From Theionarchaea archaeon (GTDB lineage: Archaea > Methanobacteriota_B > Thermococci > Methanofastidiosales > SZ-28-30), in contig JACVGT010000018.1 of assembly GCA_018992685.1 (NCBI GenBank), forward strand, positions 160,001 to 224,000: 64,000 nucleotides of DNA, written 5' to 3'. Below are positions 14,787-32,790 of this stretch, in pieces; positions within the stretch are counted from its first letter, which is position 1; each line of letters opens with the position of its first letter. Below the pieces are notes generated by a model. It was not told where the DNA came from, did not search any database, and saw only the letters and a program-made list of their open reading frames with translations. Made by a program: the position numbers and the translations under genes.

Positions 14787-14833
14787 GATACCACCAATTT
14801 GAACATGAATCCTCTCATTCTGACTGTTCTGGT

Positions 14834-15205: not shown

Positions 15206-15244
15206 TCTTGTCACCTTTTTTCTTTCTCATTTGAATTGAGATCA

Positions 15245-15740: not shown

Positions 15741-16934
15741 ATGTGGTATTTCTACTCGCCGATCGTGGTTTTCGGGGAAGATGCCCTGGATCACCTGGAA
15801 ACCATTGAAGGAAAAAGATGCTTTATAGTGACAGACCCAGGTATCAAGAGCCTGGGATTGCTGGAAATCCTCACCAGAAAATTGGAACGATTGGGAAGGA
15901 GCTGGGAAGTCTTTTCTGATGTTGAACCTGATCCCAGAGAAGAGACTGTGTATAGAGCTGCTGAGCAATGCAAAAAATATAATCCAGATCTCATCATTGG
16001 AATTGGAGGAGGTTCGTCGCTTGATGCAGCAAAAGGTGTCTGGGTCTTATATGAACATCCAGAATTCAAGAGTGTGGACGAGATCCATCCTTTTCAGAAT
16101 TTGAATACTGGGAAGAAAGCCCGGTTGATCGCGATTCCTACGACCTCGGGAACAGGTGCTGAAACAACGTGGGCTGTGGTCATTACCAGAACCAAAGAAG
16201 GGAAAACCCTGAAACTTGAGCAGGGAAACAAAGGAGTTATCCCCACGTATGCTGTGGTTGACCCTGTTTTCACCAAGGGAATGCCTCCAGGCCTGACAGC
16301 TGGAACAGGGTTTGATGCGCTGGCCCACAGTATGGAGTGCTTGATATCCACCTGGCAGAACATGTTTTCGGATGCCTTGGCCATTGGAGCTATCCGTCTC
16401 ATTCTTGAGTATCTACCGCTGGCGGTGAAAGATGGAGATAATATGAAAGCTCGAGAAGCACTGCATAATGCAGCCAGCATGGGGGGACTGGCATTCGGAA
16501 ACGCACAGGTGACATTGGGGCACGCCATGGCTCATGCTCTGGGCGCTGTTTTTCATATTCCTCACGGCACTGCGGTGGGGTTGTGTCTGCCCTATGCCAT
16601 GGAATACTGCATTCACGATCCTGAAAGTGACAGCTCAATTGAGAAACTTGCCCTGACTGCAAAATCAGTGGGGGTTGCTCAATGGTCAGATGACAATTCT
16701 GGAGCTGCCGAGAAGCTCGTGGAGAAGGTGAAGTGGCTGCAGAAAGAGACGGGACTACCCGTCTCGTTGCAGGCCTTGGATGTCTCGAGGGAAGATTTGG
16801 ATGAGAACCTGGATACCCTCATCACCCTGTGTATGGAATCAGCCAGTACCGTGATGACTCCTCGGAATATTGGCGTCTCGGAATTTAGGAAGCTCTTTGA
16901 CTATATGTACTCTGGAAGGAAAGTCGACTTCTGA
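15741..16934 (+). CDS. Iron-containing alcohol dehydrogenase
   Basis: GIGGGSSLDAAK, IPTTSGTGAE, DALAHSME and GHAMAH..HG; AGGAGGT SD. Confidence 0.93.
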   Translation: MWYFYSPIVVFGEDALDHLETIEGKRCFIVTDPGIKSLGLLEILTRKLERLGRSWEVFSDVEPDPREETVYRAAEQCKKYNPDLIIGIGGGSSLDAAKGVWVLYEHPEFKSVDEIHPFQNLNTGKKARLIAIPTTSGTGAETTWAVVITRTKEGKTLKLEQGNKGVIPTYAVVDPVFTKGMPPGLTAGTGFDALAHSMECLISTWQNMFSDALAIGAIRLILEYLPLAVKDGDNMKAREALHNAASMGGLAFGNAQVTLGHAMAHALGAVFHIPHGTAVGLCLPYAMEYCIHDPESDSSIEKLALTAKSVGVAQWSDDNSGAAEKLVEKVKWLQKETGLPVSLQALDVSREDLDENLDTLITLCMESASTVMTPRNIGVSEFRKLFDYMYSGRKVDF

Positions 16935-16944
16935 AGGTGATATC

Positions 16945-18774
16945 ATGAAAGGATTCCGCGGGAAGATCTTGGTGGTGGACTTGTCCTCAGAGACCATTAA
17001 GACTGAACTGGTGAATGAAGAGATTGCCAGGGCGTTTCTGGGTGGAGCTGGATATGCTGTTCGATACCTCTATGATCTTGTGGATGAGGGTACGGACCCT
17101 TTAGGGCCAGAAAATCCTCTTTTTTTCATGACGGGACCTCTCACCGGGACTCTTGCTCCTTCTGCAGGCCGGTGGGTGGTATGTGCCAAGTCGCCACTCA
17201 GCCAGATCTGGGGAGAATCCAACTGTGGAGGCTTTTTCGGAGCTGAGCTAAAATTCGCCGGCTTTGATGGCATTCTGGTGAAGGGAACTTCTGAACATCC
17301 TGTATACGTGTGGATTACCAACGATGAACAAGACATAATGGATGCATCTGATCTGTGGGGGAACGGTATCTATGAAACCCACTCCAGACTGAAACAAGCA
17401 GTTTCGGACAAACTAGCACGAGTAGCCTGTATCGGTCCTGCAGGGGAAAACCTGGTAAAATATGCCAGCATTGGATCTGAAGAACGAGCAGCGGGAAGGA
17501 CAGGGATGGGAGCTGTCATGGGCAGCAAGAACCTGAAGGCTGTGGTGGTCAGGGGAAAACTACGGGACATTGACCTCGCACATCCCGACCAGTATAATCA
17601 GCTGGCAAAGACCATCAAGAATGAGATCATGGATATCTTTACTGCCCAGATGATGGGTGAACTGGGAACGTCAGGTGGTGTTGATATGTACAATTATAGA
17701 GGACAGCTTCCGGTCAAGTACTGGACGAGAGGTGAATTTGACGGTGCCTATGATATCTCGGGTTCCACCATGAAAGAGACAATTCTGGTACGTCCCCGTC
17801 ACTGTTTTGCCTGCCCCATTGGGTGTGGGCGAGTGGTCAACGTGAAAGAAGGGAGATACAAGACCCCTGGTGAGGTGGAAGGGCCTGAGTACGAAACGGT
17901 GGCGGGATTTGGATCCCAACTCCTCAACAATAACCTAGAAGCCATAGCCAAGGCTAACTATCTGTGCAATGACTACGGGATTGACACCATCTCCTCAAGT
18001 GTTATTATTTCTTTTGTATACTACCTCGTGGAAAAAGGAATTGTTTCTGCTGGAGACCTTGATGGAATCAACCCCCGGTTTGGAGACTTTGATCCTGCAC
18101 TGGAGTTCATTTCCAGGATTGCCCAGCGAAAAGGAATTGGGAATCTGCTTGCTGAAGGTGCTCAAGCTGTTGGCAGCCACTTTGGCGTTTCCCGTGACGA
18201 GATTGCCACCGTTGACGGCATGGAGGTAACATATCATGATCTGCGCTCCACGTATGGGATGGCCATTGCGTATGCTACAGGGCCCCGAGGACCTGGGCAT
18301 AACTCCTGTGATATGTACATGACCTCCACGGGGCAGCCCTTTCCAGAACTGGACATTCCTGTTCCAGATCACTATGATGAGAGTTGTGTCATGACTGATG
18401 CCTGCGCCCGCCTCCAGGATTATCGAGCTTTCTACAGTACTGTGATCTTCTGCATGTTCTGCAACCCCGCTCCCTCTTCCATTGGTGACCTCATTTCGTT
18501 GGCCACTGGGTGGGACATTGGAATACCGGAGATCAAGATCATCGGAGAGCGAGTCTTCACCATGAAGAGGCTGTTCAACATCAAGATGGGCCTCTCTGGA
18601 GACTGGGACACCATTCCTGAGATATTGACAGCGCCGGTGTCTGATGGAGGGTCAGCAGGGAGGAGCCCCGACTGGAAAAAGATGCTCAGACAGTATTATG
18701 AATTTCGAAAATGGGACCCGAAGACGGGTATTCCTTCAAAAGAAAAACTGGAAGAACTGGGAATCCATGTGTAG
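16945..18774 (+). CDS. aor: Tungsten aldehyde:ferredoxin oxidoreductase family protein
   Basis: AAGRTGMGAVMGSKNLKA, CFACPIGC, EGPEYET and DYGIDTIS. Confidence 0.93.
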   Translation: MKGFRGKILVVDLSSETIKTELVNEEIARAFLGGAGYAVRYLYDLVDEGTDPLGPENPLFFMTGPLTGTLAPSAGRWVVCAKSPLSQIWGESNCGGFFGAELKFAGFDGILVKGTSEHPVYVWITNDEQDIMDASDLWGNGIYETHSRLKQAVSDKLARVACIGPAGENLVKYASIGSEERAAGRTGMGAVMGSKNLKAVVVRGKLRDIDLAHPDQYNQLAKTIKNEIMDIFTAQMMGELGTSGGVDMYNYRGQLPVKYWTRGEFDGAYDISGSTMKETILVRPRHCFACPIGCGRVVNVKEGRYKTPGEVEGPEYETVAGFGSQLLNNNLEAIAKANYLCNDYGIDTISSSVIISFVYYLVEKGIVSAGDLDGINPRFGDFDPALEFISRIAQRKGIGNLLAEGAQAVGSHFGVSRDEIATVDGMEVTYHDLRSTYGMAIAYATGPRGPGHNSCDMYMTSTGQPFPELDIPVPDHYDESCVMTDACARLQDYRAFYSTVIFCMFCNPAPSSIGDLISLATGWDIGIPEIKIIGERVFTMKRLFNIKMGLSGDWDTIPEILTAPVSDGGSAGRSPDWKKMLRQYYEFRKWDPKTGIPSKEKLEELGIHV

Positions 18775-18876
18775 ATTGATCAGATTTTTCTTCTCTTTTC
18801 CTCTTTCACCCAACCGTATGACAGTGCCAGCACGCTATTCATGCCACCATAAGTATGATACTGAAGCAATGAACAG

Positions 18877-19581
18877 CTAGCGCCTGCGAGCCAGCTCCTC
18901 CATCAGCTCCATCTGAATCTCCTGGATCTGCAGGAGTCTCTGCCACTGATTTGCCAGCAGATGATCAATTTTTTCATGAAGATTCCGTATCTCCACTTCT
19001 GCTTTGAGGTTGACAACATAATCATGCTCTGACCGCAAACGATCCTTTGATTCCTGACGATTCTGACTCATCATGATAACAGGAGCCTGTATTGCAGCAA
19101 GACATGACAGCACAAGGTTCAGGAGAATGAAGGGATAAGGATCAAAATGTTTAGAAAGGAGCACCACACTGTTTATGCCGATCCATACAACCAGTATGCT
19201 AAAGAACATCATGATAAAAAGCCAGCTCCCAGCAAATTTGGCAAGTGCGTCTGAAAGGCGTTCTCCGAAGGTGAGGTTCTGTTGAAACTCAACATTAATA
19301 TCTCTGGATATGAGCTCCTGTTCTCTGAGACTTTTCATTACCTGTTCCTCCAATGAGGAGAGTTCGCCTTTCTCAGTTTCCAGGATCTCCCTCACATACT
19401 CTGATCTGAAGTGGTTGAGGTCAGAAAGACAGATAAATCCAGAGGGGGACCACTGAGGGTACTTCTTCTGGATAGTCTCAACCAGGGGGTCTCGAATGAG
19501 ATCTCCCGGGATGACCTCATCCGGATCTTTATGTTCTCCACAAATCCCACATACAATAGTCTTCTTATCTGCATCTGTCAT
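18877..19581 (-). CDS. DUF1003-family membrane protein
   Basis: TFGERLSD..AKFAGSW and FDPYPFILLNLVLSCLAAIQAPVIMMSQNRQ. Confidence 0.88.
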   Translation of the reverse strand: MTDADKKTIVCGICGEHKDPDEVIPGDLIRDPLVETIQKKYPQWSPSGFICLSDLNHFRSEYVREILETEKGELSSLEEQVMKSLREQELISRDINVEFQQNLTFGERLSDALAKFAGSWLFIMMFFSILVVWIGINSVVLLSKHFDPYPFILLNLVLSCLAAIQAPVIMMSQNRQESKDRLRSEHDYVVNLKAEVEIRNLHEKIDHLLANQWQRLLQIQEIQMELMEELARRR

Positions 19582-19847
19582 ATTACCACCTCTGAAGGTT
19601 CCTGAATTTATACTCCCGGAGTCTAATAAATTCTTTCATCGCCATCCTCAATCCTCAAAACGGCAGGGCCTGCAGGAAGTTCCTCCTGTTGGGAACCCGT
19701 GGGCGTGAGGAAGACCACGTTGCAGGCGATGACAAAGATGTCTCCTGAATACTCAGGCTACAAGAATGATGGTACCTCGCTTTGATATCGAGGCCATCCT
19801 GCAGATTTTTAAGGTGTGACAGCAATACATAGGAGAATGGTGATGTC

Positions 19848-21587
19848 ATGACAGAGAAAAGACCAAAGTTGACTGGTGGCGACGTTCTTGTGCAGTGTTT
19901 GGTCCAGGAGGGAGCCAAGAAGGTTTTCGGTGTCCCTGGAGATCAATTATACCCTTTCTTGGATGCCATATACAAATCAGATGAAATCGATTTTGTTACC
20001 ACCCGGCATGAACAGGCTGCAGCCCACGCAGCAGATGCCTGGGCACGGGTAACGGGTAACCCAGGAGTCTGTGTGGGAACTGTGGGACCAGGTGCTGCAG
20101 ACCTGGTTCCTGGCGTGTATGTCGCATATGCAGATTCCATTCCTATGATTGTAATAACAGCTCAAAATCAATCCTGGAAGATACATCCTGATCATGGTTC
20201 TATGCAAGCTCTGGATCAGCAGTCCCTGTTTCATCCTATTACCAAGTGGAGAGTGCTAGTAAATCACTGGAAGAGAATTCCTTCTTTGGTCCAGTGGGCG
20301 TACCGGAATGCTGTGTCAGGCCGGCCGGGTCCTGTGCTCCTAGACTTTCCTGCAGATGTCTTGTTTGATGCGGGGTATCCTGAAGAGCTGGAGAGCCCTG
20401 TATTACCCCCTCACCAGTACAGAGCTGTAGCCTCCCCCGTGGGGAATCCTGAGGCCATACGAACGGCTGCACAGTTGCTGGTTGAAGCCAAGGCCCCTCT
20501 TATTCATGCAGGAGGAGGTGTCCTGCAATCTGAAGCATCAGATGAAATCGTTGGGCTCGCAGAACATTTGCAGGCCCCTGTCACCACGTCGCTGATGGCC
20601 AGAGGAGTCATACCTGAAGACCACGAGCTCTGTCTGCTTCCTGCAGGGTACGGTTCTCTGGCAGCACAGGTTGGAGCAGATATTGTCCTTGCCGTAGGAG
20701 GCAGGTTCGGTGATCTGGACTTTTGGGGAAAGCCTCCTGGATGGGGCGAACCTGATGAGCAGAGAGTGATCCAGATAGACATTGATCCCACCATGCACGC
20801 ATTGAACCGTCGCGTGGATCTGGCAATTACAGGAGATGCAAAGGTTACCCTCCGGCAGCTGCTGGAAGAAGTCAAGAAAATTCACCCAGAGAAGAAAATC
20901 CCCAGAGAAGACCTCGAGGATGATAGGGCAGCTCAGGAGGCGTGGCTGAATGATTTCAAGGAATTGAGTAACTCCAGCCAGGTACCTATCCACCCTTTGA
21001 CTGTGATCCAGAAAGTACGCGATTTCTTTCCCCGTTCAGCCATCAGTATCGTTGATGGAGGAAATACTGCAATCTGGGCCGTGTATCTCAATCGGATTTA
21101 TGAGCCCCGTACGTTCTTGTGGGCATCTGATTCTGGCCACCTGGGTACAGGTATTGGTTATGCTATCGGTGCCCAACTAGCCCGACCTGATAGGAGCGTG
21201 TACTGCATTACCAGTGACGGCTCAGTCATGTTTAACATACAGGAACTTGAAACTGCGGCGCGCCTGTGTGTTCCAATAGTCATTATCGTGGTTAATGATC
21301 AAGCCTACGGAATGATCAAAGCAGGCCAGAAGGCAGTGTGTGACTCCCGATTCATTGGAGTGGACTTCACTGATGCGAGATATGACAGGATTGCAGAAGC
21401 TATGGGATGCTATGGGGAGCGTATTCAGTCTCCTGATGAAGTCACCCCTGCACTGCAGAGAGCTGTAGATTCGGGCAAACCTGCCTTGCTGGATGTGGTT
21501 GTGGACAGTGATGTCAATTTAGAACCTCCTGATTTCAAGACCGTGGCTGCGCTCTGGTTGGAAGGCTGTGAAATGCCCGATGAGTAA
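19848..21587 (+). CDS. ThDP-dependent enzyme of the acetolactate synthase / 2-hydroxyacyl-CoA lyase superfamily
   Basis: RHEQAAAHAAD, GPG and SGRPGPV; ThDP motif variant SDGS...NDQAYG. Confidence 0.85.
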   Translation: MTEKRPKLTGGDVLVQCLVQEGAKKVFGVPGDQLYPFLDAIYKSDEIDFVTTRHEQAAAHAADAWARVTGNPGVCVGTVGPGAADLVPGVYVAYADSIPMIVITAQNQSWKIHPDHGSMQALDQQSLFHPITKWRVLVNHWKRIPSLVQWAYRNAVSGRPGPVLLDFPADVLFDAGYPEELESPVLPPHQYRAVASPVGNPEAIRTAAQLLVEAKAPLIHAGGGVLQSEASDEIVGLAEHLQAPVTTSLMARGVIPEDHELCLLPAGYGSLAAQVGADIVLAVGGRFGDLDFWGKPPGWGEPDEQRVIQIDIDPTMHALNRRVDLAITGDAKVTLRQLLEEVKKIHPEKKIPREDLEDDRAAQEAWLNDFKELSNSSQVPIHPLTVIQKVRDFFPRSAISIVDGGNTAIWAVYLNRIYEPRTFLWASDSGHLGTGIGYAIGAQLARPDRSVYCITSDGSVMFNIQELETAARLCVPIVIIVVNDQAYGMIKAGQKAVCDSRFIGVDFTDARYDRIAEAMGCYGERIQSPDEVTPALQRAVDSGKPALLDVVVDSDVNLEPPDFKTVAALWLEGCEMPDE

Positions 21588-21598
21588 CTGGTGATGAG

Positions 21599-22615
21599 GT
21601 GAAGGCTGCAGTATTTTACGGAGAAAAGGATGTCCGCATTGAAGACGTGGATGATCCTTCTCCAGGACCGGGTGACGTCCTGCTCAGTCCCTTGTATTGT
21701 GGAATCTGTGGTACAGATGTTGATGCCTGGAAAACTGGCATGTATACACCTGGAGTGATACTGGGTCACGAATTCTCTGCCAGAGTTGTTGAATGCGGAC
21801 CTGGAGTGGACGGATGGAGCCCCGGGGACAACGTGGTAGTCAACTCGATTATCCCCTGTGGGACCTGTTCTTTCTGCGTACAAGGGAGGTACAGCCTGTG
21901 TGACAATGTGAAAATGCCGGGTATTACTGTCAATGGTGGTCTTGCTGAGCTTGTCTCCATCCCTGCTGATTCATTATTGCGGATGCCAAATTCTGTTACT
22001 GCAAGAGAAGCTGCCCTTACAGAACCACTGGCTGTTGTCCTGCACGGGTTCAATTTAATCAAAGGGGACTGGGGACTGGGCAACAAAGCACTGGTGACAG
22101 GTGCAGGCACCCTGGGATTACTTGCACTGCAGGTGGCTCACGCTGCAGGTGCTTCTCTTGTGGCAGTTTCTGAACCCAATTCCTCCAGGCGGGACACTGC
22201 AGTCGCTCTGGGTGCTGACATGGTAATTGATCCTGAAGTATCTAATGTGTGGGTGGAATTTGGAGAAAAGGCAGGTCACCTTCCCGATCTAGTGGTGGAA
22301 TGTTCAGGATCGGCCCTGGCTGCAACAGAAACGTTCTCTCTGGCCAAGAAAGGAGGGGTGGTCCTTGTCTTGGGAATATCTGAAGAGCCAGTAGAAGCAG
22401 ATTTCATGGCAGCAGTCCTTAACGAATTGACCTTTCACTTCAGTTACTGTGGATATTCAGAGTTTTCCGCCGCACTGGCTATGATTGAAAGGAAGATAGT
22501 CCGCGTAGGTGACTTAATCACTGAAATACCCCTGGACGATACCGTTGAGAAGGGATTTCAGAGGCTGGCAGATTCCCACTCTGACGTAGTAAAACTCTTG
22601 GTAAAAATATCATGA
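21599..22615 (+). CDS. Zn-dependent medium-chain alcohol/diol dehydrogenase
   Basis: CGICGTD, GHEF, CGTCSFC...C and GAGTLG. Confidence 0.92.
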   Translation: MKAAVFYGEKDVRIEDVDDPSPGPGDVLLSPLYCGICGTDVDAWKTGMYTPGVILGHEFSARVVECGPGVDGWSPGDNVVVNSIIPCGTCSFCVQGRYSLCDNVKMPGITVNGGLAELVSIPADSLLRMPNSVTAREAALTEPLAVVLHGFNLIKGDWGLGNKALVTGAGTLGLLALQVAHAAGASLVAVSEPNSSRRDTAVALGADMVIDPEVSNVWVEFGEKAGHLPDLVVECSGSALAATETFSLAKKGGVVLVLGISEEPVEADFMAAVLNELTFHFSYCGYSEFSAALAMIERKIVRVGDLITEIPLDDTVEKGFQRLADSHSDVVKLLVKIS

Positions 22616-23040
22616 ATGGAGGTGATTGTATTCTCTTAGGTTGTGAAGAGTATCTCGAAGAAGCTAAAAAGCGGGTGAATGAGGATTCTCAGTATGAAGA
22701 GCTAGCCAAGGAAATTAATGACTCCTATACCTTGGTAATGGAGGCAGAACCCACCAAGGGGGTTCCCAATTCCATGGTTCTGGGATTTCAGATCTCCAAT
22801 GGAAAAATGATTGATATCTGGCGCGGTGACAGGAAAACTGATTTCATCCTTTCAGCCAAATACGGAGACTTTGTGGACATCTTGATGGGAAACCTCAATG
22901 TCACCAAGGCGTTTGTCACCCGGAAACTGAAGATAAAAGGGTCTCTAGCCCGCATGCTGAAAACTTCAAAAGCCACAGAACGGTTTGTTGAAGTGCTGAA
23001 GGCTATTCCTACAGAATTTGAGGGAGACTACTGCAAATAA
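22612..23040 (+). CDS. SCP2 sterol/lipid-carrier domain protein
   Basis: FVDILMGNLNVTKAFVTRKLKIKGSL SCP2 signature. Confidence 0.85.
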   Translation: MNGGDCILLGCEEYLEEAKKRVNEDSQYEELAKEINDSYTLVMEAEPTKGVPNSMVLGFQISNGKMIDIWRGDRKTDFILSAKYGDFVDILMGNLNVTKAFVTRKLKIKGSLARMLKTSKATERFVEVLKAIPTEFEGDYCK

Positions 23041-23058
23041 GAAATTAGAAAAAAAGAA

Positions 23059-23463: not shown

Positions 23464-23883
23464 TGAGTTCAACTCCTCTTTACGTATGTTGAGGTTGTTT
23501 CGATCTTCGTCTAATAAATGTTTGCAGTAATGACTCGCATCTTGGTCCCGCAGCGCCAGATTTATTTGATAGCCATCATGGTTTCTGATTCTGAGCTACA
23601 TTGATGATGTTCGAAGTTTCCCCTCAAGGCGGGCGTCCTTTCGAGACCAGACAACTCCAGACTGGCAAAAGGAAGGCAGATCTCTGATTCTCCTTTTCTA
23701 TTCGGCTTATATTTTGTGTTCTTTCTTTGATATATTCTCATATTCTCATGAAACGTTCAAGCTTTCCCGTGAATTCCTTCTTATGACGGTATTAGAAACA
23801 TCCTGATCATCTCACTATCGACGATACCATTAAATATATCATGTGTCCAAAGGAAGCCAGAAAAGAACCTGAAGAGGTTGCAC

Positions 23884-24252: not shown

Positions 24253-24253
24253 T

Positions 24254-25813
24254 ATGTATGTTCTGGTTATTGATGCAGGGACCACAGGTATCAGGTCCAT
24301 TATTTTCGATAAAGAGACCACCGTCGTCTCACAAGCATATGAAGAAATCCCCCAGATTTACCCTGAGCCGGGCTGGTGTGAGCAAGATCCTGTTGTCATC
24401 TGGGAAAAATGCGTTAGTGTCCTCAAGCAGTCCTTGGAAAAGGCCAAACTATCCTCAACCGATATTGTGGCCATAGGAATGACCAATCAGAGATCCACCA
24501 GTTTGCTCTGGGACAAGAAAACAGGTGTTCCCATCCATAATGCTGTTACCTGGCAGGACACCAGAACAGCTCACTTATGTAAAGAAAAAGACAGAGCCTT
24601 CAAGATAAGGGCACTTCGAGGTGCAGGTTCTGCAGTGAAGCTTCTTGGTCAGATAATCAAGCCAATCAAGAGGAGCCGCACCGGAAAATTGCTGATGACG
24701 GTGTCGAACCTTTCCTTCAGCCCTGCTACTTCACTAGCCCATATTGCATGGGTTCTCAACAATGTAAATGGAGCACGAGAAAAAGCAGAAAAGGGGGATC
24801 TCCTTGCGGGTACCATTGATACCTGGTTAATCTGGAACCTTACAAGAGGCAGTGTTCACGCCACAGACTATAGCAATGCCAGTGCCACCAATATGTTTGA
24901 TACCTTCAGCCTGAAGTGGAGCACCCTGTTTCTGGGGCTATTTGACATTCCTCTTTCATTACTGCCTGAAGTCAGAGAATCCAGTGGAGATTTCGGCAAA
25001 ACCCATCCCGACCTGTTTGGCACTCCAATACCCATCACAGGTGTGTGTGCAGACCAGCAGGCTGCCCTCTTCGGGGAGACCTGTTTCAACGCAGGTGACG
25101 TGAAATGCACACACGGGACGGGCACCTTCATTGATATGAATGTGGGAGAAGAACCGGTCACCTCTCCTCACAAGCTTGTTCCCCTCATTGCCTGGTGTCT
25201 GAATAAGAAGGTGACCTACATGCTGGAAGGATATCTCGGGGCAACAGGTTCTGCTGTCCAGTGGCTGTGTGATGGACTGCAAATCGTCAACGCTCCCTCA
25301 GAAACGGATGATATCGCCTGTTCCATAGGAGACACAGGAGGAGTCTACCTTGTACCCGCCTTCCAGGGGCTGACCTCTCCATACTGGGACCCTCTGGCCA
25401 GGGGAGTTGTGGTAGGACTGACCCGGGGAACCAGAAAGGAACACGTGGTCAGAGCAACTCTGGAGGCCATTGCATACTGCTGCAGAGATATCATGGTAGC
25501 TATGGAAGAGGATTCTGGAGTGACCATCAAGACCATAAAGGCGGATGGAAATGCTTCCACCAACAATTTCATAATGCAATTCATGGCGGATCTCCTGGAT
25601 GTGGAGATCGAGAGACCTGCAATGCTGGAGTCTACAGCACTGGGAGCAGCATTCCTTGCTGGATTGTCTGTAGCCTACTGGAAATCACAGGAAGAGCTCA
25701 AGAAATACCGGAAAATAGATTCAAGATTCCAACCTGCAATGGACCACGCAGAAAGAGAGAAACTGTATAAAAAATGGAAAAAAGCAGTGAAAAGATCATT
25801 TGACTGGGCTTAG
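24254..25813 (+). CDS. FGGY glycerol-kinase family protein with a GK5-like insertion
   Basis: IDAGTTG, TNQRST, WQDTR, GTIDTWL, DQQAALFG and KCTHGTGTF; a basic amphipathic stretch follows WQDxR. Confidence 0.9.
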   Translation: MYVLVIDAGTTGIRSIIFDKETTVVSQAYEEIPQIYPEPGWCEQDPVVIWEKCVSVLKQSLEKAKLSSTDIVAIGMTNQRSTSLLWDKKTGVPIHNAVTWQDTRTAHLCKEKDRAFKIRALRGAGSAVKLLGQIIKPIKRSRTGKLLMTVSNLSFSPATSLAHIAWVLNNVNGAREKAEKGDLLAGTIDTWLIWNLTRGSVHATDYSNASATNMFDTFSLKWSTLFLGLFDIPLSLLPEVRESSGDFGKTHPDLFGTPIPITGVCADQQAALFGETCFNAGDVKCTHGTGTFIDMNVGEEPVTSPHKLVPLIAWCLNKKVTYMLEGYLGATGSAVQWLCDGLQIVNAPSETDDIACSIGDTGGVYLVPAFQGLTSPYWDPLARGVVVGLTRGTRKEHVVRATLEAIAYCCRDIMVAMEEDSGVTIKTIKADGNASTNNFIMQFMADLLDVEIERPAMLESTALGAAFLAGLSVAYWKSQEELKKYRKIDSRFQPAMDHAEREKLYKKWKKAVKRSFDWA

Positions 25814-25815
25814 AA

Positions 25816-26799
25816 CTATTCTGAATCAGGGGAGAAGGCATAGTGGACAGTTATCGTGCCATCCTCTCCAATAAGTGCAGTGATTCCGCTGTGCCTGGTT
25901 TCATTCCCCATGAATGCATCATACCAGAGAACCTGCCAATTCTCTTCTCCGACCTGAGTGACTACCACAGCCGGGAGCCGCGCCTTGGCCAGGAATGCCT
26001 GTATTTTTTCATCCTTTCTGGAATAGGAGACTGCTTTCTCAGGAGTGTCCACTGGAGGATCAGAAACAGTGTCCAATAGGGGCAGAGTCTCAACAGTCCG
26101 CGTTTCCAGGATGCTCTGGGAAAGAGTGTTCACGGTGTATATGTAGTATATCCGGGCTTTCTCATCCTCTCTCTGGACCACTACTGACCATATGTGGGGT
26201 AAAGCAGTGGGGAGACCATAGCCCTCTTCTCCTGCCTCTTTTTGGACAGTGGCGAGGGCCACTCCTTTTTCGTAGTACCGTATTCCAAAAAAAGTGGCTA
26301 CAAGACAGAGAGATACCACCGCGAGGACCTTCACGGTCTTTCTATCCTTGCGATAGTGACCAACTACAGCAGCCAAAAGGAAAATGGCGAAGAAGACTGG
26401 ATCAAAGAAACTGGTGATATCGAACACAGTTCTCGAATCTGAGAATGGCCATCGTATAGCCATGCTCCACGGAGTCAGTAAATCAAGGAAAAGGTGACCA
26501 AAAGCTCCGATCATGAATAGACAGAGCATCAAGAGGACCTTGTTCTTCTGAAAGTTGGACAGTTGGACAGTCATCACGAGATACAGCAGTCCCAGAACAA
26601 GAGCCCCAACAATAACTCCCACAATCGAGTGAGTGACTCCTCTGTGGTACTGGAATACAGCATCTATGCCCCCCAGAATGGAGACACCGTCAAAGTCAGG
26701 GAGCATGCATGCCGCTACAAAGAGCACCCAGGATTTCTTATCCAGGTTCAGCCCTCTGCCAATCACGATTCCTACCAGCCCATGAGATATGAGGTCCAT
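25816..26799 (-). CDS. Membrane-bound metal-dependent hydrolase (YdjM/DUF457-like)
   Basis: MDLISH...PDFD...HRGVTHS...HLFLDLLT..; several TM helices. Confidence 0.85.
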   Translation of the reverse strand: MDLISHGLVGIVIGRGLNLDKKSWVLFVAACMLPDFDGVSILGGIDAVFQYHRGVTHSIVGVIVGALVLGLLYLVMTVQLSNFQKNKVLLMLCLFMIGAFGHLFLDLLTPWSMAIRWPFSDSRTVFDITSFFDPVFFAIFLLAAVVGHYRKDRKTVKVLAVVSLCLVATFFGIRYYEKGVALATVQKEAGEEGYGLPTALPHIWSVVVQREDEKARIYYIYTVNTLSQSILETRTVETLPLLDTVSDPPVDTPEKAVSYSRKDEKIQAFLAKARLPAVVVTQVGEENWQVLWYDAFMGNETRHSGITALIGEDGTITVHYAFSPDSE

Positions 26800-26921
26800 T
26801 CATGAATCACCTGTATATGGTCAATCCAGAGTCTCAATTGTTAAATACTTTCTCACTATCACGGAAATAATCAAAATGTCTGCACAACACAGAACCATCA
26901 ATATATTGACGTGTTGTACCT

Positions 26922-26945
26922 TGAGCTTTCTTCCTCGAAAGCTCA
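26922..26945 (-). terminator. Stem-loop at the stop of the oxidoreductase gene
   Basis: TGAGCTTTC / GAAAGCTCA 9-bp perfect stem with a 6-nt loop, overlapping the stop codon at 26943-26945. Confidence 0.45.
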
Positions 26946-28199
26946 TTCCCCTAGTCTAATAACATCAAAGTGCAGTTCCTCATTCACATTTTCAAGTACA
27001 GCTTTTTCCATTTGCACCTTGACCATTTCAGGAGGTTTGACAATCCTCTCCTTTTTTTCCTTGACTACTTCCCCTTGTGAGGATATGATAACCTTCACAT
27101 TCTTCTCAATTTCCTTTACACGTAGGTAAAACACAATGTCTTCCTTGGGATGTCCTCGGATTATCTGAGGAACAACATAACTAACATTTCGTCCCTTTTT
27201 TACTGAAACGACGGTATCCCTTCTCTCTACGGTTCCTTTAACGCAGGCTGCAGCACCTTTACCTGCGACTTCAGCCGCCTGAGATACGTCATCCACCAGG
27301 TCGTGGACATGCACCACATTTCCACAGGCGAATATCCCAGGAACAGAGGTTTCCATCGACTCATCTACCACCGGCCCTCCTGTGGTCAAGTCCATTTCAA
27401 TGGTAGCTTTCCTGGATAACTCGTTTTCTGGAATCAGTCCCACAGACAACAACACGGTATCACACGGAATATACCGTTCAGTTCCAGGTACCGGTTTGAA
27501 TCTCTCATCAACTTGCGCCACTGTCACTCCCTCGACTCTCTCCTTCCCTTTGATGTCAACGATCGTATGTGAAACATGCAAGGGTATCCCATAATCCTCC
27601 AGACACTGAACCACATTTCTGGTCAACCCCCCAGCCCTTGGCAGAATCTCGTATACTCCCTCCACGTCTCCGCCTTCCAGAGAAAATCGCCGAGCCATGA
27701 TTAACCCCACATCGCCTGAACCCAGAACAACCACTTTCTTTCCTGGTAGTAGTCCTTCCATGTTGATGAACCGCTGAGCAACCCCTGCAGTATAAATGCC
27801 TGATGGCCTCTCCCCCGGAATCAAGATCTGTGAGCGTGTTCTTTCCCTGCATCCCATGGCCAGTATTACGGCTTTCGCCTTCATGGTGACCACCCCCTCT
27901 TCGGGATTCACAACAGTCACCTTTTTGTCAGAGTCCAGGTCCACCACCATGCTATTTAGCATAACGCTGATTCCTGTTTTCTCAATCTCCTCAATGTATC
28001 GCTGGGCATATTCAGGACCTGTCAACATCTCGCCAAAGACAAAATTCCCAAACCCATCATGAATACACTGAGGCAGGATACCCCCCAGCTCGAAATCACG
28101 TTCCAGAATTACCACCTGTTGAGCTCCAGCCCTGTATGCACTCAGAGCAGCCGCCAACCCCGCAGGACCGCCTCCAATGACCACAATATCCACATTCAT
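26943..28199 (-). CDS. NAD(P)/FAD-dependent oxidoreductase, partner of the GlpA-like dehydrogenase
   Basis: GGGPAG, GGILPQCIHDGFG, AMGCRER, GSGDVGLIMARR and CGNVVHVHDLVD. Confidence 0.9.
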   Translation of the reverse strand: MNVDIVVIGGGPAGLAAALSAYRAGAQQVVILERDFELGGILPQCIHDGFGNFVFGEMLTGPEYAQRYIEEIEKTGISVMLNSMVVDLDSDKKVTVVNPEEGVVTMKAKAVILAMGCRERTRSQILIPGERPSGIYTAGVAQRFINMEGLLPGKKVVVLGSGDVGLIMARRFSLEGGDVEGVYEILPRAGGLTRNVVQCLEDYGIPLHVSHTIVDIKGKERVEGVTVAQVDERFKPVPGTERYIPCDTVLLSVGLIPENELSRKATIEMDLTTGGPVVDESMETSVPGIFACGNVVHVHDLVDDVSQAAEVAGKGAAACVKGTVERRDTVVSVKKGRNVSYVVPQIIRGHPKEDIVFYLRVKEIEKNVKVIISSQGEVVKEKKERIVKPPEMVKVQMEKAVLENVNEELHFDVIRLGE

Positions 28200-29953
28200 G
28201 AGACCACCTTTGTTTTGCTGGCCACAATGTATGATCCTCCACCCTTTTTCGTAACTCTCTCCAGTGGTAAGCCCTGCTCTCTGGACAGTATTTCAGCTAC
28301 CCTGGGTCCACAGAACCCACCCTGACACCTTCCCATCCCCGCCCTGGTTCTCCTCTTGACTGCGTCCATAGTCACAGCTGGTATTGACCCATGGATTGCA
28401 TTAACAATCTCAGCTTCAGTAACCTGCTCACATCGACACACTATGTGTCCATATCGTGAATTTTTCTTGATCAGTTCTGTCTTTTCTTCTGCAGACAGTT
28501 CTTTAAACACTGGAGGTGCCTTCCTCACTGGGTTAAACCCTTCCTTCTCCTTCAAAGGAACACCTGATTTTCTCAATATGTCCACAACCCTCTTGGCAAT
28601 CACAGGAGCAGCTGTCAACCCGGGGGATTGTATGCCTGCTGCATGGATGAATCCCCTTACCCTGGAAGGTCCAATCACGAAATCTTCAGTGTACGTGGCA
28701 GCTCTCACGCCGGCAAAATATGTAATAACAGAATTCAAGGGAAATTCGGGGACTGCTGGATGGTATTTCTCCACCATGGTCTCAAGTTCACTCTTGCTCA
28801 CAGATGTATCCTCCCTGTCTGAGACTTCCACTGCTGTGGGTCCCCACAACATGTTGCCGTCCACGGTCTCTAGGACCCCGCCTCCCTTGGTATGGGGATC
28901 CTGAGGGAATCGTAACTCGCTAACCTGGTGTGTAAGATACCCCTCAGTCTTATCAAAGAGCAAGATACTTCCTTTCCGGGGATGGATTGTGTACTCTCTG
29001 GCCCCTGCCATGCCGGCAATCACATCCGCATACACACCTGCTGCATTGATCACGGTCCTACAGGAAATGTCCCCTCTGGAGGTTGCTACTTTCCTGACAG
29101 CATCATTCTCTACCATAATGTCGAGCACTTCAGTATCTAGAACAAAGGTGACTCCATTCTCGACAGCGTTTTCTGCCAGGGCAATTGTGATCTTATAGGG
29201 ACAGGTTACACCATACCCAGGCATTAATATGGCTTTTACTGCCCTTTTCGTTATGTGGGGCTCCATCTGTAGCAGTTCCTTTCTGTTCACAACGCGGGGA
29301 GTATCTCCCACACTTTTGCCCCTGTGAGCCACAAAGTATGGTACTATGTACGTGAGAATAATTCGGGAAAGAAAAGAAGGAACCCACTGGGGCAGACTCT
29401 CCTCTGTTAATAAGATTAAGAGCCCATTCTTCTCATAGGGAACATCCAGATCTTCTGCAATCTTTTGGTATAGAGGCCAGGCTTCAGCACACAATTCTTT
29501 CTTAAGAGTGCCGGATTTCTCTCCGACCCCGGTGTGGATCTGTCCATTATTGGCTTTGGTTGCCCCACATGCCACATCTGATTCTTTTTCCACCACCACA
29601 ACATCTAGATTATACCGGGACAGCTCCCTGGCAACAAAACAGCCAATGACCCCTGCCCCTATGATGACTACATCTGTTTTTCCTGGAAGTTTCATACGTA
29701 TTCCAGAATCTCTGAAAAAGGACTGAGCCTCATCTTTACGCTCTGTGATATCTCTGCTTTTAGTATTATTGACAATCCCCCTCACTCCTTTCAGGCTGCC
29801 CGCATAGTGACCTATCTGCACCACGTCGTCCCATGTGTCAGCTAATCCAGCAATGGTGACAATTCTATCTTCTACAGAAACTTTAATAGACGATAGATTC
29901 TTTTTTTCCAGGAATTTTTCTAATTTTTTCTTTATTTTTTCATTTGTGGTCAT
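28196..29953 (-). CDS. GlpA/LhgO-like FAD dehydrogenase with N-terminal BON-like domain and C-terminal BFD-like [2Fe-2S] domain
   Basis: IIGAGVIG, ATKANNGQIH, PHTKGG, GIQSPGLTAAP and CRCEQV...GMGRCQGGFC; N-terminal IKVSVEDRIVTIAG...LKGVRGIVN resembles BON. Confidence 0.85.
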   Translation of the reverse strand: MTTNEKIKKKLEKFLEKKNLSSIKVSVEDRIVTIAGLADTWDDVVQIGHYAGSLKGVRGIVNNTKSRDITERKDEAQSFFRDSGIRMKLPGKTDVVIIGAGVIGCFVARELSRYNLDVVVVEKESDVACGATKANNGQIHTGVGEKSGTLKKELCAEAWPLYQKIAEDLDVPYEKNGLLILLTEESLPQWVPSFLSRIILTYIVPYFVAHRGKSVGDTPRVVNRKELLQMEPHITKRAVKAILMPGYGVTCPYKITIALAENAVENGVTFVLDTEVLDIMVENDAVRKVATSRGDISCRTVINAAGVYADVIAGMAGAREYTIHPRKGSILLFDKTEGYLTHQVSELRFPQDPHTKGGGVLETVDGNMLWGPTAVEVSDREDTSVSKSELETMVEKYHPAVPEFPLNSVITYFAGVRAATYTEDFVIGPSRVRGFIHAAGIQSPGLTAAPVIAKRVVDILRKSGVPLKEKEGFNPVRKAPPVFKELSAEEKTELIKKNSRYGHIVCRCEQVTEAEIVNAIHGSIPAVTMDAVKRRTRAGMGRCQGGFCGPRVAEILSREQGLPLERVTKKGGGSYIVASKTKVVS

Positions 29954-30107
29954 AGTAGTCCCTCCAGCAACCTCAGATCACCAAGAACGGGCTAAGATTT
30001 TAAATGTTTCTGTGTACTGAAGCGTCTTTTCTAGGAATTGAGCAGGAAGCAGCATCATAGCTCTGTGTCCACAGCAATCCACTGAATCCTTCAGCAGAAT
30101 CTATACT

Positions 30108-31310
30108 CTATTGATTCATGCTTTCAAAAACGATTTCTGACAGATCACGCGATTCAGAATTCCTGGTCCTCTTAAAAGCAATTTTGCACGCAGGGCAGGC
30201 AGTGACCACAGTGTCAGCAAGCTCACACAACTCACTGTCCCTAGCTCGCAGCAGTGTGACAGAAAGTTCAGGATTGGTCATGGCCAGGAGCCCACCTATT
30301 CCGCAGCATCGAGTGTGCTCCCTGGTCAGAGGAGGCTCCCTCACGGATACGCCCGGGATAGCTTCCAAGACCCTTCTTGGCTGTTCAATGATATGCAATT
30401 TCCTGGCCAGGACACAGGGATCATGATACACCAGGTCTTTGTTGAGCTCTTTCAACTGAATCTTCCCTTGTTCAATCAATTCCAGAAAATACTCAGACGT
30501 GTGCATCACGTCAGCTTTCACGGGGAATCCTGCTTCAGCATATACGTCCTTGAAGGTATACACACACTCAGGACAGCTACAGATCATCTTCTTACAGCCA
30601 CTTTTCTCAATGATATCTGCATTACGGGCTGCGAATTCCTTGAAATCATTTTCAAACCCCAAGAGATTCAAAGGAGCCCCGCAGCACCATTCCTCGGGTA
30701 ACGTAGTCACAGCAATTCCTACTTTCTCGAGAATCTTCATGGTGGTCTGGGCAATGACTCGTTCCTTGTTCAGCACCGTGCACCCAGCAACGTACAGTAT
30801 ATCTGCTTCTCGTGGCTCCAGCCCCAGGGAAGTCCTGGAATTCTGATAGATGGTGTGGCTGTTGACAATCTGATCTCTAATGCCCATCAGCATCTCTGGA
30901 GCCAGATTCCTGTCCACCAGATCTCTTCTCACCCCTATTAAGAGATCATCCACAGAAAAATCAAAAGGACACCACTGCTGGCATGCAGAACATGCAGCAC
31001 ATGCATACATCAAATCCACGGCATCTTGAGATGAAACCCGGCCCATCTCCAGTAAATAAGCTATCCGTGCCCTGCCTGCGGGTGCATATGTTTCAGACTT
31101 GGCTGCCTGCAACACGGGGCAATCAAATCGGCACATATTAGGACAGAGTGCACACTTCAAAATGTCATCCACGTGTGCCTTCGTTTTGCCATCTGGTAGA
31201 TACTTCTTCTTTGCTGTGAGAAACCTGACCACAACTTCCTTTTGCGTAGAAAGGGCCAACCTTGAGATAGCTTTTGCAATCCAGAAATACTTTTTGAATT
31301 CTTCCAGCAT
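30108..31310 (-). CDS. CCG-domain Fe-S oxidoreductase (GlpC/HdrD/GlcF-like)
   Basis: CALCPNMCRFDCP and CAACSACQQWCP, plus two CCG domains (WCCG, YHDPC..CCG..TACPAC). Confidence 0.9.
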   Translation of the reverse strand: MLEEFKKYFWIAKAISRLALSTQKEVVVRFLTAKKKYLPDGKTKAHVDDILKCALCPNMCRFDCPVLQAAKSETYAPAGRARIAYLLEMGRVSSQDAVDLMYACAACSACQQWCPFDFSVDDLLIGVRRDLVDRNLAPEMLMGIRDQIVNSHTIYQNSRTSLGLEPREADILYVAGCTVLNKERVIAQTTMKILEKVGIAVTTLPEEWCCGAPLNLLGFENDFKEFAARNADIIEKSGCKKMICSCPECVYTFKDVYAEAGFPVKADVMHTSEYFLELIEQGKIQLKELNKDLVYHDPCVLARKLHIIEQPRRVLEAIPGVSVREPPLTREHTRCCGIGGLLAMTNPELSVTLLRARDSELCELADTVVTACPACKIAFKRTRNSESRDLSEIVFESMNQ

Positions 31311-31311
31311 G

Positions 31312-32790
31312 TTATAACCCCATTTTTCCCGGATTCATTACATACTCAGGATCCAATGCTTTCTTTATCGTTCTCAGAACTTCAAGAGATGATCCCAGTT
31401 CCTGTTGTACCCACGGGCTCCGCAAGATTCCAATGCCGTGGTGATGACTTATGGAACCTCCAGCGTGCAAGCACGCTTTCATGGCAGCATCCCATACAGT
31501 CTGGTAGAAATCTGTAGGACTCCCAGTCATGGGTGTTCCCCCGAAAGTGAAATAGAAACACACACCCTGGGGATAGAAGTGTGAGGCGTGGGCAGATGCG
31601 ATAATCACCCCGTCAATTGATTTCATTGCAGAAATCATGGATTGATATAACTCCATGGATTTATCCCACATGACAGAGACTTCAATGGTGTCAAAAACAA
31701 CATCTCGGGGGGTGAATTCTGAGATTTCCTTCACATTGAAGCGGGTCTCTAACCAGTGGGCTGCGGGTCCCTCACCTACTGAGATTCCGCCGTGCTCTGT
31801 GCATACTGCATGAGAGACGGATCCTTCAAGGTCTACCAGCTCTCTGTCTCCTTCCAGAATCAGAATCAAAACACACTTTCCTCTTGTCTTCTTTGTACGG
31901 TAAAAATGCCTTTCTGTCTCCACCTGATCATATAATCGGGCCACAGCAGGAAAGATGCCTCTTCTCAAGATGATTCGTATGGATTCTAATGCCTCTTCCA
32001 GATGGGAAAAAACATAGGATTGCAATACCCTCTTTTCAGGGTAGGGCCAGATCTTCAGGGTTGCTTCTGTAATGATTCCGAGGGTCCCTTCTGCTCCCAG
32101 CAGGAGCATGTCAATCCGGGGGCCTGTGGAGGATTTGGGAACTGGTTTTGACCTGATAATTGTCCCCTGAGGGAAAACGGCTTCCAAGGAAATGAGTATG
32201 TCATCAATCTTGCCGTATTTAGTGGAGAATTGACCTGCCGCCCTGCAAGCAAGCCACCCACCTAGCGTGGAGCAGTACAATGACTGTGGTATGTGTCCCA
32301 GAGTGTAGCCCTTCTGATTGAGGAAGCGTTCCAAATTCATGCCGTTGATCCCTGGTTGGACAGTTATAGTCAAATTAGTATCGTCAAGGGCTAGAACTGC
32401 ATTCATTCTCTTCATGTCGACGATAATTCCTCCCTGAACAGGGATAGCTGCTCCTAGTACTCCTGATCCTTCCCCAAAAGGTGTAACAGCCAGGTTTTCT
32501 TCATTAGCCATCCTCATGATGCGAGAAATGTGATCTGCTGTTTCCGGCCACACCACGAATTCGGGAAGGGCAGGGACTTTCCCCTCTAACATCCATCTCA
32601 GTGCAATGGGCCAGTAGTCTCTAGAATAGGACAGCCGATCCAGCTCCCTGTGAGACACATTTCGCTTACCCACTATCTTCTGTAGGTTCACCAGGATCTG
32701 TTCTTTCTGTTCAGCAGACAACGGTGTCTGTGGGTAGACTATTTCGTAGTCCGAGCCATGAGTGTGTCCTGTAGTATTTTCTGAAGACAT
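31312..32790 (-). CDS. Alkyl-dihydroxyacetonephosphate synthase-like FAD oxidoreductase (VAO family)
   Basis: LGHIPQSLYCSTLGGWLACRAAGQFSTKYGKI, GAEGTLGIIT, RLYD, HASHFYPQGVCFYF and GGSISHHHGIG. Confidence 0.8.
   Translation of the reverse strand: MSSENTTGHTHGSDYEIVYPQTPLSAEQKEQILVNLQKIVGKRNVSHRELDRLSYSRDYWPIALRWMLEGKVPALPEFVVWPETADHISRIMRMANEENLAVTPFGEGSGVLGAAIPVQGGIIVDMKRMNAVLALDDTNLTITVQPGINGMNLERFLNQKGYTLGHIPQSLYCSTLGGWLACRAAGQFSTKYGKIDDILISLEAVFPQGTIIRSKPVPKSSTGPRIDMLLLGAEGTLGIITEATLKIWPYPEKRVLQSYVFSHLEEALESIRIILRRGIFPAVARLYDQVETERHFYRTKKTRGKCVLILILEGDRELVDLEGSVSHAVCTEHGGISVGEGPAAHWLETRFNVKEISEFTPRDVVFDTIEVSVMWDKSMELYQSMISAMKSIDGVIIASAHASHFYPQGVCFYFTFGGTPMTGSPTDFYQTVWDAAMKACLHAGGSISHHHGIGILRSPWVQQELGSSLEVLRTIKKALDPEYVMNPGKMGL

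Follow-up and report, generated by a model that had tools for sequence, protein, structure and literature searches.

What does a relative of alkyl-dihydroxyacetone-phosphate synthase (AGPS) do in an archaeon, next to a kinase of the glycerol kinase type and a dehydrogenase of the GlpA type? The question is raised by a stretch of 64,000 nucleotides from a Theionarchaea archaeon (GenBank assembly GCA_018992685.1, contig JACVGT010000018.1, positions 160,001 to 224,000; hereafter the window), in which a first-pass annotation had assigned 14 neighboring genes to an oxygen-independent breakdown of glycerol ether lipids. All 14 genes were found within 15702-32799 from open reading frames (ORFs) and Pfam scans. 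Only six of them form a conserved unit: an AGPS-like flavoprotein (AGPSl), an iron-sulfur protein with CCG motifs (the CCG protein), three subunits of a glycerol-3-phosphate (G3P) oxidoreductase paralogue (FngA', FngB' and FngC') and a GlpK-like kinase (K'). We tentatively propose that these six proteins catabolize, at the membrane surface, glycerol backbones that carry a substituent on one end carbon.

The first gene of the module encodes AGPSl (31312-32799, minus strand; 495 amino acids, Pfam FAD_binding_4 and FAD-oxidase_C). It is followed on the same strand by the CCG protein (30108-31310; 400 amino acids, two stretches of Pfam CCG and Fer4_8), FngA' (28196-29953; 585 amino acids, Pfam BON, DAO and [2Fe-2S] BFD) and FngB' (26943-28199; 418 amino acids, the Pyr_redox_2 subunit for FAD and NAD). 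The fifth and sixth genes, for FngC' (23878-24252; 124 amino acids, the DUF1667 [4Fe-4S] subunit) and K' (24254-25813; 519 amino acids, an FGGY kinase by Pfam and NCBIfam), lie on the plus strand and converge with the minus-strand genes, the last of which encodes a membrane metal-hydrolase of the YdjM family. This arrangement deviates from the order AGPSl-CCG-FngA'-FngB'-FngC'-K' of the non-Asgard loci (Theionarchaea, Thermoplasmatota, Bathyarchaeia and Methanolliviera), in that FngC' and K' are inverted together and YdjM is added.

Linkage was assessed in the best 80 of 272 relatives of AGPSl, which were obtained by a degenerate-pattern scan with one genome per species and were compared with the 14 window proteins by tblastn (32 non-Asgard and 48 Asgard loci). 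These 80 loci are mutually related, so that the counts overstate their independence. The CCG gene came immediately after AGPSl in 77/80 loci, the remaining three of which end within ~620 bases, and in all 72 loci that extend 1300 bases or more beyond AGPSl. Downstream of AGPSl, an FGGY kinase was present in 59/80 loci, including all 49 that extend at least 6400 bases, and FngA' in 25 of the 32 non-Asgard loci. As had been supposed, one conserved module thus unites AGPSl and its CCG neighbor with the kinase and the GlpA-like trio.

The same unit recurs in the host's class, where our search covered 133 genomes, 97 of them in family f6 (probably Thermococcaceae, the Thermococcus/Pyrococcus family). 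AGPSl was found in 16/97 f6 genomes, at 49-56% identity. Kinase matches were present in 87/97 f6 genomes, mostly as a copy with ~50% identity to K', the alignment being interrupted at an insert described below, and a second kinase (33-37% identity) occurred in 16/97. AGPSl and the second kinase were both present in 15 f6 genomes, ~6 kb apart on one contig in 12 of these, and the two discordant genomes, with one module gene but not the other, are 81% and 85% complete. Of the 15 genomes that carry AGPSl together with the second kinase, 13 also have the ~50%-identity kinase (G115 and G119 do not), and both f6 genomes examined, G037 and G069, contain a canonical GlpK-FngA(497 amino acids)-FngB-FngC operon at another locus. 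Colinear six-gene operons were seen in Theionarchaea, Thermoplasmatota, Bathyarchaeia and f6, and in six f6 regions the flanks were unrelated housekeeping genes. These results support a module distinct from ordinary glycerol catabolism.

The surroundings of the operon were far less constant. No Pfam family occurred in more than three of 52 flanking genes from 24 Thermoplasmatota, Bathyarchaeia and related loci, and the flanks of f6 and other loci revealed no conserved transporter, isomerase, aldolase or glycosidase. At the module edge, the hydrolase differs between lineages and comes from three families: YdjM in the window, an alpha/beta hydrolase in 33/48 Asgard loci, and, in one f6 genome, an EEP phosphoesterase. 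The last of these is an endonuclease/exonuclease/phosphatase-family (PGAP2IP-like) protein whose gene immediately precedes the operon on the same strand (L127:4307-5578, plus strand). In Methanolliviera, the gene after AGPSl-CCG-K' (L011:4710-5915, plus strand) matches a geranylgeranyl-reductase family model below its cut-off (96.2 vs. 158.8 bits).

The GlpA-like dehydrogenase and its partners belong to a known kind of enzyme, because the same trio of DAO plus BFD, Pyr_redox_2 and DUF1667 proteins in Pyrococcus furiosus is FngABC, an electron-bifurcating G3P oxidoreductase dependent on ferredoxin and NAD, of which DUF1667 is the FngC subunit (PMC13689815). In P. furiosus it is encoded together with glycerol kinase and a glycerophosphodiesterase (PMC13689815). 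The module likewise encodes the three subunits along with a kinase, as in the P. furiosus operon PF2003-PF2007, which holds the same subunits and a GlpK-family kinase (PMC13689815). The module proteins are ~40-47% identical to the canonical f6 copies of FngABC and kinase, and FngB', which is colinear in relatives, is ~40% identical to FngB of the canonical f6 operon. Unlike P. furiosus FngABC, however, FngA' bears a hydrophobic insert in addition to a BON domain, K' lacks Glu84 and Tyr135 and has an amphipathic insert, and the module operon is led by AGPSl and the CCG protein.

Pfam places the BON domain of FngA' at residues 5-65 (32.2 bits, cut-off 27), ahead of DAO (94-458) and Fer2_BFD (504-557). 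In an alignment of 25 module and two canonical FngA sequences, an N-terminal extension of ~90 amino acids and a hydrophobic insert of ~14 were present in 25/25 module copies and in neither canonical copy; Pfam detected BON in 23 of the 27. The two additions that had been pointed out in the GlpA-like protein are thus real and a hallmark of the module. The host genome (G000; 3.03 Mb, 91% complete) contains one GlpA/FngA-like gene and one GlpK-like kinase in total. The DNA sequencing runs listed as matching are sediment metagenomes, with no RNA run among those listed. Elsewhere in the window, a group of minus-strand genes (55774-59060) encodes a DAO-family flavoprotein of 379 amino acids with 27% identity to FngA', a small BFD-like ORF and a Fer2_4+Pyr_redox_2 protein of 474 amino acids, a cluster that, we presume, resembles heteromeric dehydrogenases of the proline/opine/sarcosine type.

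K' passes both NCBIfam cut-offs for GlpK, that of TIGR01311 marginally (594.1 vs. 590.35) and that of NF000756 at 632.6 vs. 498. The specificity signature of GlpK consists of Arg83, Glu84, Tyr135, Asp245 and Phe270 (PMC3245297). In K' it reads R-S-A-D-F, so that compared to Escherichia coli glycerol kinase (GK) two of the five residues are replaced (Glu84 by Ser81, Tyr135 by Ala158). Neither Glu84 nor Tyr135 was kept in any of 21 non-Asgard module kinases, of which 18 have Ser and three Ala at position 84, or in any of nine module kinases from the host's class. In contrast, all 26 canonical f6 kinases have R-E-Y-D-F. The glycerol-specificity signature is thus broken in every module kinase examined, which supports this part of the earlier interpretation. 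The available part of PMC5059525 does not separate kinase subfamilies.

The insert in K' comprises ~27-36 extra residues within ~113-150, depending on the comparator (27 against the canonical f6 GlpKs, which lack it), and sits just ahead of position 135 in E. coli GK numbering. It is predicted with confidence as a helical hairpin (helices 116-134, 136-140 and 142-150; pLDDT 81-92 for the block and 90.4 for the model). Across 38 distinct sequences, the stretch of 33-44 residues that holds the insert has a median net charge of +8 and a median hydrophobic moment of 0.685 (z ~2.5 vs. shuffles). The amphipathic insert noticed on first reading is therefore genuine, cationic and a further hallmark of the module. 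In a tree of 57 kinases, with generic FGGY kinases thinned to eight and canonical kinases to 10, two duplicate rows dropped and no bacterial GlpK included, the canonical f6 clade nested among the module kinases (SH-aLRT 87), where the module group was defined by the insert; this topology is compatible with either one or several origins of the module kinases.

The best matches of AGPSl in the PDB are the AGPS structures of Dictyostelium (2uuu, E 2e-66, 228 bits) and guinea pig (4bby, E 5e-65, 223 bits), and the next solved family, D-lactate dehydrogenase, follows at 137 bits. This agrees with the initial identification of the flavoprotein as AGPS-like. Its named homologues put the host in Theionarchaea, in line with the origin of the contig. 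Membership of the GlcD type was not found by either model, with TIGR00387 (glcD) at 199.9 vs. a cut-off of 567.9 and PRK11230 at 108.1 vs. 897, and a lactate or glycolate dehydrogenase is disfavored by the glcD score. The catalysis-essential residues of Dictyostelium AGPS are R352, R447 and Y508 (PMC3509576). AGPSl aligns with the AGPS motifs vaRlyd, etRf, hfYpqg and sHHHg, and its R288, R353, Y409 and H452-454 were invariant in 13 diverse homologues from five phyla. We take R352, R447 and Y508 to pair with the Arg and Tyr motifs of AGPSl, and likewise assume the role of the HHH loop. The FAD_binding_4 paralogues of the host genome were too divergent from AGPSl for a contrast of active-site motifs.

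AGPSl thus resembles AGPS (also named ADPS, EC 2.5.1.26; animals, Dictyostelium, Myxococcus) in its VAO-type fold and its Arg/Arg/Tyr/HHH motifs. Unlike AGPS, it is ~90-160 residues shorter (495 amino acids vs. 584 and 658), and the alignments begin only at chain residue 131 of the Dictyostelium and 180 of the guinea pig enzyme. The AGPS-only domain, a beta-sheet with a gate-keeping helix, controls or forms the entrance of a channel for the C16 lipid (PMC3509576); this N-terminal gating domain is absent from AGPSl, and a lipid tunnel is therefore not established. Further differences from AGPS are the pairing of AGPSl with an Fe-S/CCG protein that it is predicted to bind, its linkage to a kinase and a dehydrogenase and not to FAR/GNPAT, and a host range of strict anaerobes.

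The constant partner of AGPSl contains two ferredoxin-type Cys motifs and two complete CCG motifs, a Cys pattern that was kept in 23 sequences, and no hydrophobic segment was detected in it (maximum KD19 1.27). Prediction of the AGPSl-CCG complex gave a score of 0.92, against 0.00 for the best control. In a benchmark whose counts are rough, as the alignments were self-built, this level was reached by 58/80 solved complexes and 2/110 mismatched pairs. Contact agreement between runs was at least 90%, and the pLDDT of the partners was at least 89. In the predicted interface, CCG residues 51-63, which hold the first 4Fe-4S Cys motif, face the FAD-binding domain of AGPSl (108-112, 152-155 and 173-176) and also a family-specific conserved N-terminal segment of AGPSl (49-73). 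No close solved relative of the CCG partner in a similar complex was found at E <= 1e-5. The model supports binding of AGPSl to the CCG protein.

With so constant an Fe-S/CCG partner, AGPSl may well be a redox enzyme. The first-pass annotation had assumed the redox-neutral exchange of AGPS, and both the presence of the partner in 77/80 loci and the predicted complex argue instead for redox chemistry, which suggests that the flavin of AGPSl ends up reduced. This pairing is familiar from dehydrogenases of the GlcD/GlcF type (GlcDEF, D-lactate dehydrogenase with a CCG subunit, and the fused YdiJ), in which a FAD_binding_4 flavoprotein adjoins a protein with 4Fe-4S and two CCG motifs. AGPSl differs from these in carrying HHHG, at the place where 2-hydroxyacid dehydrogenases carry a metal-binding Glu-His, and in having a kinase as genomic partner and not a lactate/glycolate permease. 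The CCG protein matches the family models of TfrB, LdhH, GlpC and GlcF, but falls below both cut-offs for GlpC (NF008369, 99.2 vs. 278; TIGR03379, 78 vs. 279.9). Hence, the module resembles E. coli GlpABC in combining a GlpA/FngA-type flavoprotein and a CCG iron-sulfur subunit in one operon, and is unlike it in lacking GlpB and in having AGPSl as the constant partner of the CCG protein, even at Asgard loci where FngA' is missing.

How might these proteins work together? Ordinary glycerol use takes only a kinase step at C3 and a dehydrogenase step at C2, and an enzyme directed at C1 is therefore an extra. The addition of such an enzyme, the loss of kinase residues that hydrogen-bond the glycerol hydroxyls, and the membrane-type tethers of both kinase and dehydrogenase would fit most simply with a glycerol backbone that is substituted at C1 and located in a membrane. 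The most likely substrates would be 1-O-alkyl- or 1-O-acyl-glycerols derived from membrane lipids. In a first step, K', which its cationic amphipathic helices would hold at the membrane, would phosphorylate the free primary hydroxyl at C3. FngA'B'C', tethered by BON, would then oxidize C2 to a ketone and, like P. furiosus FngABC, couple this step to NAD and ferredoxin. AGPSl could subsequently apply flavin-N5 chemistry of the AGPS type at C1 of the substituted dihydroxyacetone phosphate (DHAP) and expel the substituent, with the flavin electrons passing to the bound Fe-S/CCG partner. The products would be a triose phosphate, which could enter central metabolism, and a long-chain alcohol or acid. 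Possibly, the electrons are released when the N5 adduct collapses oxidatively; nitroalkane oxidase, in which this happens, has been discussed as a precedent for a flavin-N5 adduct (PMC3509576). Substrate, order of steps, direction and the oxidative role of the CCG protein are all parts of the proposal that we infer.

Several points weigh against this proposal. AGPS chemistry is redox-neutral, and an Fe-S partner requires the added assumption that the adduct collapses oxidatively. The missing gating domain leaves AGPSl with no evident lipid tunnel. K' is above the GlpK cut-offs and is the sole GlpK-like kinase of the host genome; judged by its sequence, it could be the organism's plain glycerol kinase. 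The kinase partner is not uniform either, as 31 kinase rows from Asgard loci are of a generic FGGY type without the insert. Archaeal diether lipids are blocked at C2, which makes their direct entry into the route impossible. No lipid-specific gene was conserved with the module among the 52 flanking genes, and the relatedness of the 80 loci, mentioned above, also counts here. Finally, the BON domain and the amphipathic helices are indicators, and not proof, of membrane binding, and all enzyme activities of the module are predicted.

A more specific version of our proposal is anaerobic ether cleavage, which we regard as possible yet doubtful. K' would then be an alkylglycerol kinase and FngA'B'C' an alkyl-G3P dehydrogenase, together yielding alkyl-DHAP, from which AGPSl and the CCG protein would expel a fatty or isoprenoid alcohol, the flavin-N5 adduct being hydrolyzed or, with the CCG clusters as the exit for electrons, oxidatively collapsed. 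The module would in that case be a possible functional analogue of alkylglycerol monooxygenase (AGMO) in cleaving the 1-O-alkyl bond of alkylglycerols. AGMO is a membrane enzyme dependent on O2 and tetrahydrobiopterin, and is described as the sole known enzyme that cleaves alkylglycerols (PMC7911779, PMC9192799). Unlike AGMO, to which its proteins are unrelated in sequence, the module would attack the carbon on the glycerol side, after phosphorylation and oxidation. If this unproven cleavage does take place, eukaryotic and myxobacterial AGPS would have an ancient catabolic enzyme of anaerobic metabolism as its ancestor or sister, and archaea of sediments and vents would consume ether-lipid necromass. 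Anoxic sediments contain plentiful ether lipids, which persist there, and the module offers a concrete candidate for the missing anoxic cleavage route.

Of the alternative explanations, the one that survives best involves no lipid substituent at all. The module might be a second, membrane-associated system for the oxidation of glycerol and G3P (or sn-glycerol-1-phosphate), in which K' is a variant glycerol kinase and AGPSl with the CCG protein a new kind of glycerol-phosphate dehydrogenase, whose CCG clusters would hand electrons on to an acceptor in the membrane or of the thiol/disulfide type. This dehydrogenase would operate alongside FngA'B'C' or jointly with it. We consider this unlikely, although a good deal speaks for it. 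K' passes the GlpK cut-offs and has no GlpK-like companion in the host genome. Pairs of a flavoprotein of this superfamily with a CCG protein are dehydrogenases, as the matches of the CCG protein to TfrB, LdhH, GlpC and GlcF illustrate, and the predicted docking of the Fe-S motif onto the FAD domain suits electron transfer. The CCG subunit GlpC has moreover been proposed as the exergonic branch of E. coli GlpABC (PMC13689815).

The Asgard loci bear on this alternative from both sides. The Fng genes are absent at all 48 of them, and the unit consists of AGPSl, CCG and an FGGY kinase, which would make a complete two-step route. Yet all five trio-bearing Asgard genomes that were searched have a separate, BON-less FngA homologue at another locus. 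Likewise, 13/15 f6 carriers retain the ~50%-identity kinase, and the two genomes examined both have the full canonical GlpK-FngABC operon. A second glycerol system would also have to account for the fact that no module kinase examined retains all five glycerol-binding signature residues, two being replaced in each; it leaves the retained Tyr/Arg/HHH set of AGPS unexplained, and membrane-directed additions have no obvious use on soluble glycerol.

The Asgard kinases are of two kinds. One is GlpK-like (40-43% identity), with Ala at position 84, Asp at 135 and a shorter insert, and the other is a generic FGGY kinase (24-28% identity) without the insert. Tandem pairs of FGGY kinases were observed in several Asgard loci (e.g., L083, L079, L051). 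Directly upstream of AGPSl, on the same strand, 35/48 Asgard loci encode an all-helical protein of 492 amino acids without a Pfam or NCBIfam family (e.g., L063:8394-9872, plus strand). A language model gave a weak lead to a prenyltransferase/squalene-cyclase toroid (low recognition, 1454) for this protein, and its AlphaFold model has a pLDDT of 87. In Foldseek, its best match was RabGGTase beta (E 0.14-0.6), with none at E <= 0.001; an alpha/alpha toroid of the prenyltransferase-beta/squalene-cyclase type is thus a lead only. The alpha/beta hydrolase of the Asgard loci comes after the kinase (e.g., L063:14342-15166, plus strand), and its relatives are generic esterases.

Another explanation is that the substrate is a soluble polyol or sugar alcohol (C4-C5, or glycosyl-glycerol). 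K' would then phosphorylate it, FngA'B'C' would form a keto-sugar phosphate, and AGPSl with the CCG protein would act as a second oxidoreductase, at the ketol end. Many FngABC homologues adjoin sugar kinases, and their substrates are probably polyols different from glycerol (PMC13689815), a larger polyol could fit where positions 84 and 135 carry smaller residues, and generic FGGY kinases stand beside AGPSl in many Asgard loci. Nonetheless, this seems improbable to us: K' is still closest to GlpK, the AGPS-type motifs indicate a DHAP-like C3 unit, the BON domain and cationic amphipathic insert would remain unexplained, and a transporter, isomerase, aldolase or glycosidase was not conserved beside the operon.

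The first-pass annotation had gone further and joined the whole 17 kb into one pathway. For the host genus it would hold that YdjM removes head groups, SCP2 carries the lipid, the alcohol dehydrogenases (ADHs) and aldehyde:ferredoxin oxidoreductase (AOR) oxidize the released alcohol to an acid, and a thiamine diphosphate (ThDP) enzyme participates. The genes concerned are an Fe-ADH (15702-16934, plus strand), AOR (16870-18774, plus), the ThDP enzyme (19848-21587, plus), a Zn-ADH (21599-22615, plus), a first SCP2 protein (22612-23040, plus), a second of 137 amino acids (23059-23472, minus; Pfam SCP2, E 2.6e-9), and YdjM (25816-26799, minus; 327 amino acids), all assigned by Pfam. They are local neighbors outside the conserved module, YdjM being a local addition in Theionarchaea. 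The ThDP protein scored below every NCBIfam cut-off, and the YdjM protein has a hydrophobic segment (KD19 2.61). A DUF1003 protein (18877-19581, minus; Pfam) lies among them, and a second AOR gene is located elsewhere in the window (39712-41526, plus).

This larger pathway has local evidence in its favor. In the same-genus genome G032, the whole block is syntenic at 75-91% protein identity. Two of the four SCP2 matches in the host genome are at this locus and two of its five AOR genes within the window; the ThDP, Zn-ADH and SCP2 genes are tightly packed on one strand; and YdjM, which ends the minus-strand unit, stays near K' in G033, another genome of the genus. However, synteny at 75-91% identity carries no weight, and in G033 other genes are found beside K', with only the YdjM homologue kept. 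Outside the window, YdjM adjoins the module only in L004/G032, at 75% identity, and in G033, at 40%. Among the 80 related loci, SCP2 and YdjM each occurred once, both times in the same-genus locus L004, a Zn-ADH-like gene (~30% identity) occurred in five, and ThDP, AOR, Fe-ADH and DUF1003 in none, while the flanks of six f6 operons are housekeeping genes. In addition, AOR and ADH are common in peptide-fermenting archaea. SCP2, ADH, AOR, ThDP and YdjM are thus linked to the module within the host genus only, and their claimed membership of the pathway, which we now judge quite improbable, is not borne out in relatives, an outcome that the first-pass annotation had itself named among those that would speak against it.

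Least probable of all, and in our view very unlikely, is synthesis or salvage, in which AGPSl would attach a recycled alcohol, long-chain or isoprenoid, to DHAP by an ether bond, FngA'B'C' would reduce the alkyl-DHAP with NADH and K' would re-phosphorylate alkylglycerol: ether formation is the sole known reaction of AGPS (PMC3509576), a reductive direction has been proposed for FngAB-type enzymes (PMC13689815), and both the weak prenyl-binding toroid lead in Asgard loci and the below-cut-off geranylgeranyl-reductase match in L011 would fit, but neither an acyltransferase nor a fatty-acyl reductase was seen beside the module, its patchy presence (16/97 in f6) suits an accessory catabolic trait and not core lipid synthesis, the Fe-S partner would be superfluous, and the available text of 10.1101/2025.10.10.681575 reports that no plasmalogen pathway was found in Archaea.

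The combination of an FngABC-kinase operon with an AGPS-family flavoprotein is one of known enzyme kinds in a new arrangement. The literature searched, which did not extend to supplementary Tables S1/S2 of PMC13689815 and S8/S14 of PMC11868695, contains no description of an AGPS-like/CCG/kinase module. In the available text of PMC11868695, Agps matches in archaeal metagenome-assembled genomes are merely remarked on. A survey of AGPS was filtered to 500-700 amino acids and would therefore exclude the AGPSl family, at 495 (10.1101/2025.10.10.681575, as far as its available text describes). Whatever the substrate, three groups emerge from our comparison: within the AGPS family, a flavo-Fe-S branch that is unstudied; among GlpK proteins, a subfamily whose specificity signature is changed; and, in the recently described bifurcating FngABC enzymes, a subclass tagged with BON. 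Caution is also called for, since "AGPS" and "glycerol kinase" annotations in archaea need not mean ether-lipid synthesis or glycerol use. Many of the 16 f6 carrier genomes are single-contig; if some come from strains in culture that belong to the Thermococcus/Pyrococcus group, direct testing would be feasible, as genetic tools are available for that group.

Two further features of the window lie outside the 17-kb block. Its first part (1-6000) has a G+C content of 0.36-0.39, vs. 0.45-0.52 in the remaining window, and may be foreign DNA. An ORF at 350-1909 with an AAA-associated C-terminal domain is located there, just ahead of the phenylalanyl-tRNA synthetase genes. Proteins with V4R, Roadblock/LC7 and DUF4388 domains, small-GTPase-associated regulators typical of archaea, flank the region on both sides (14154-15214 and 35244-36140, both on the minus strand).

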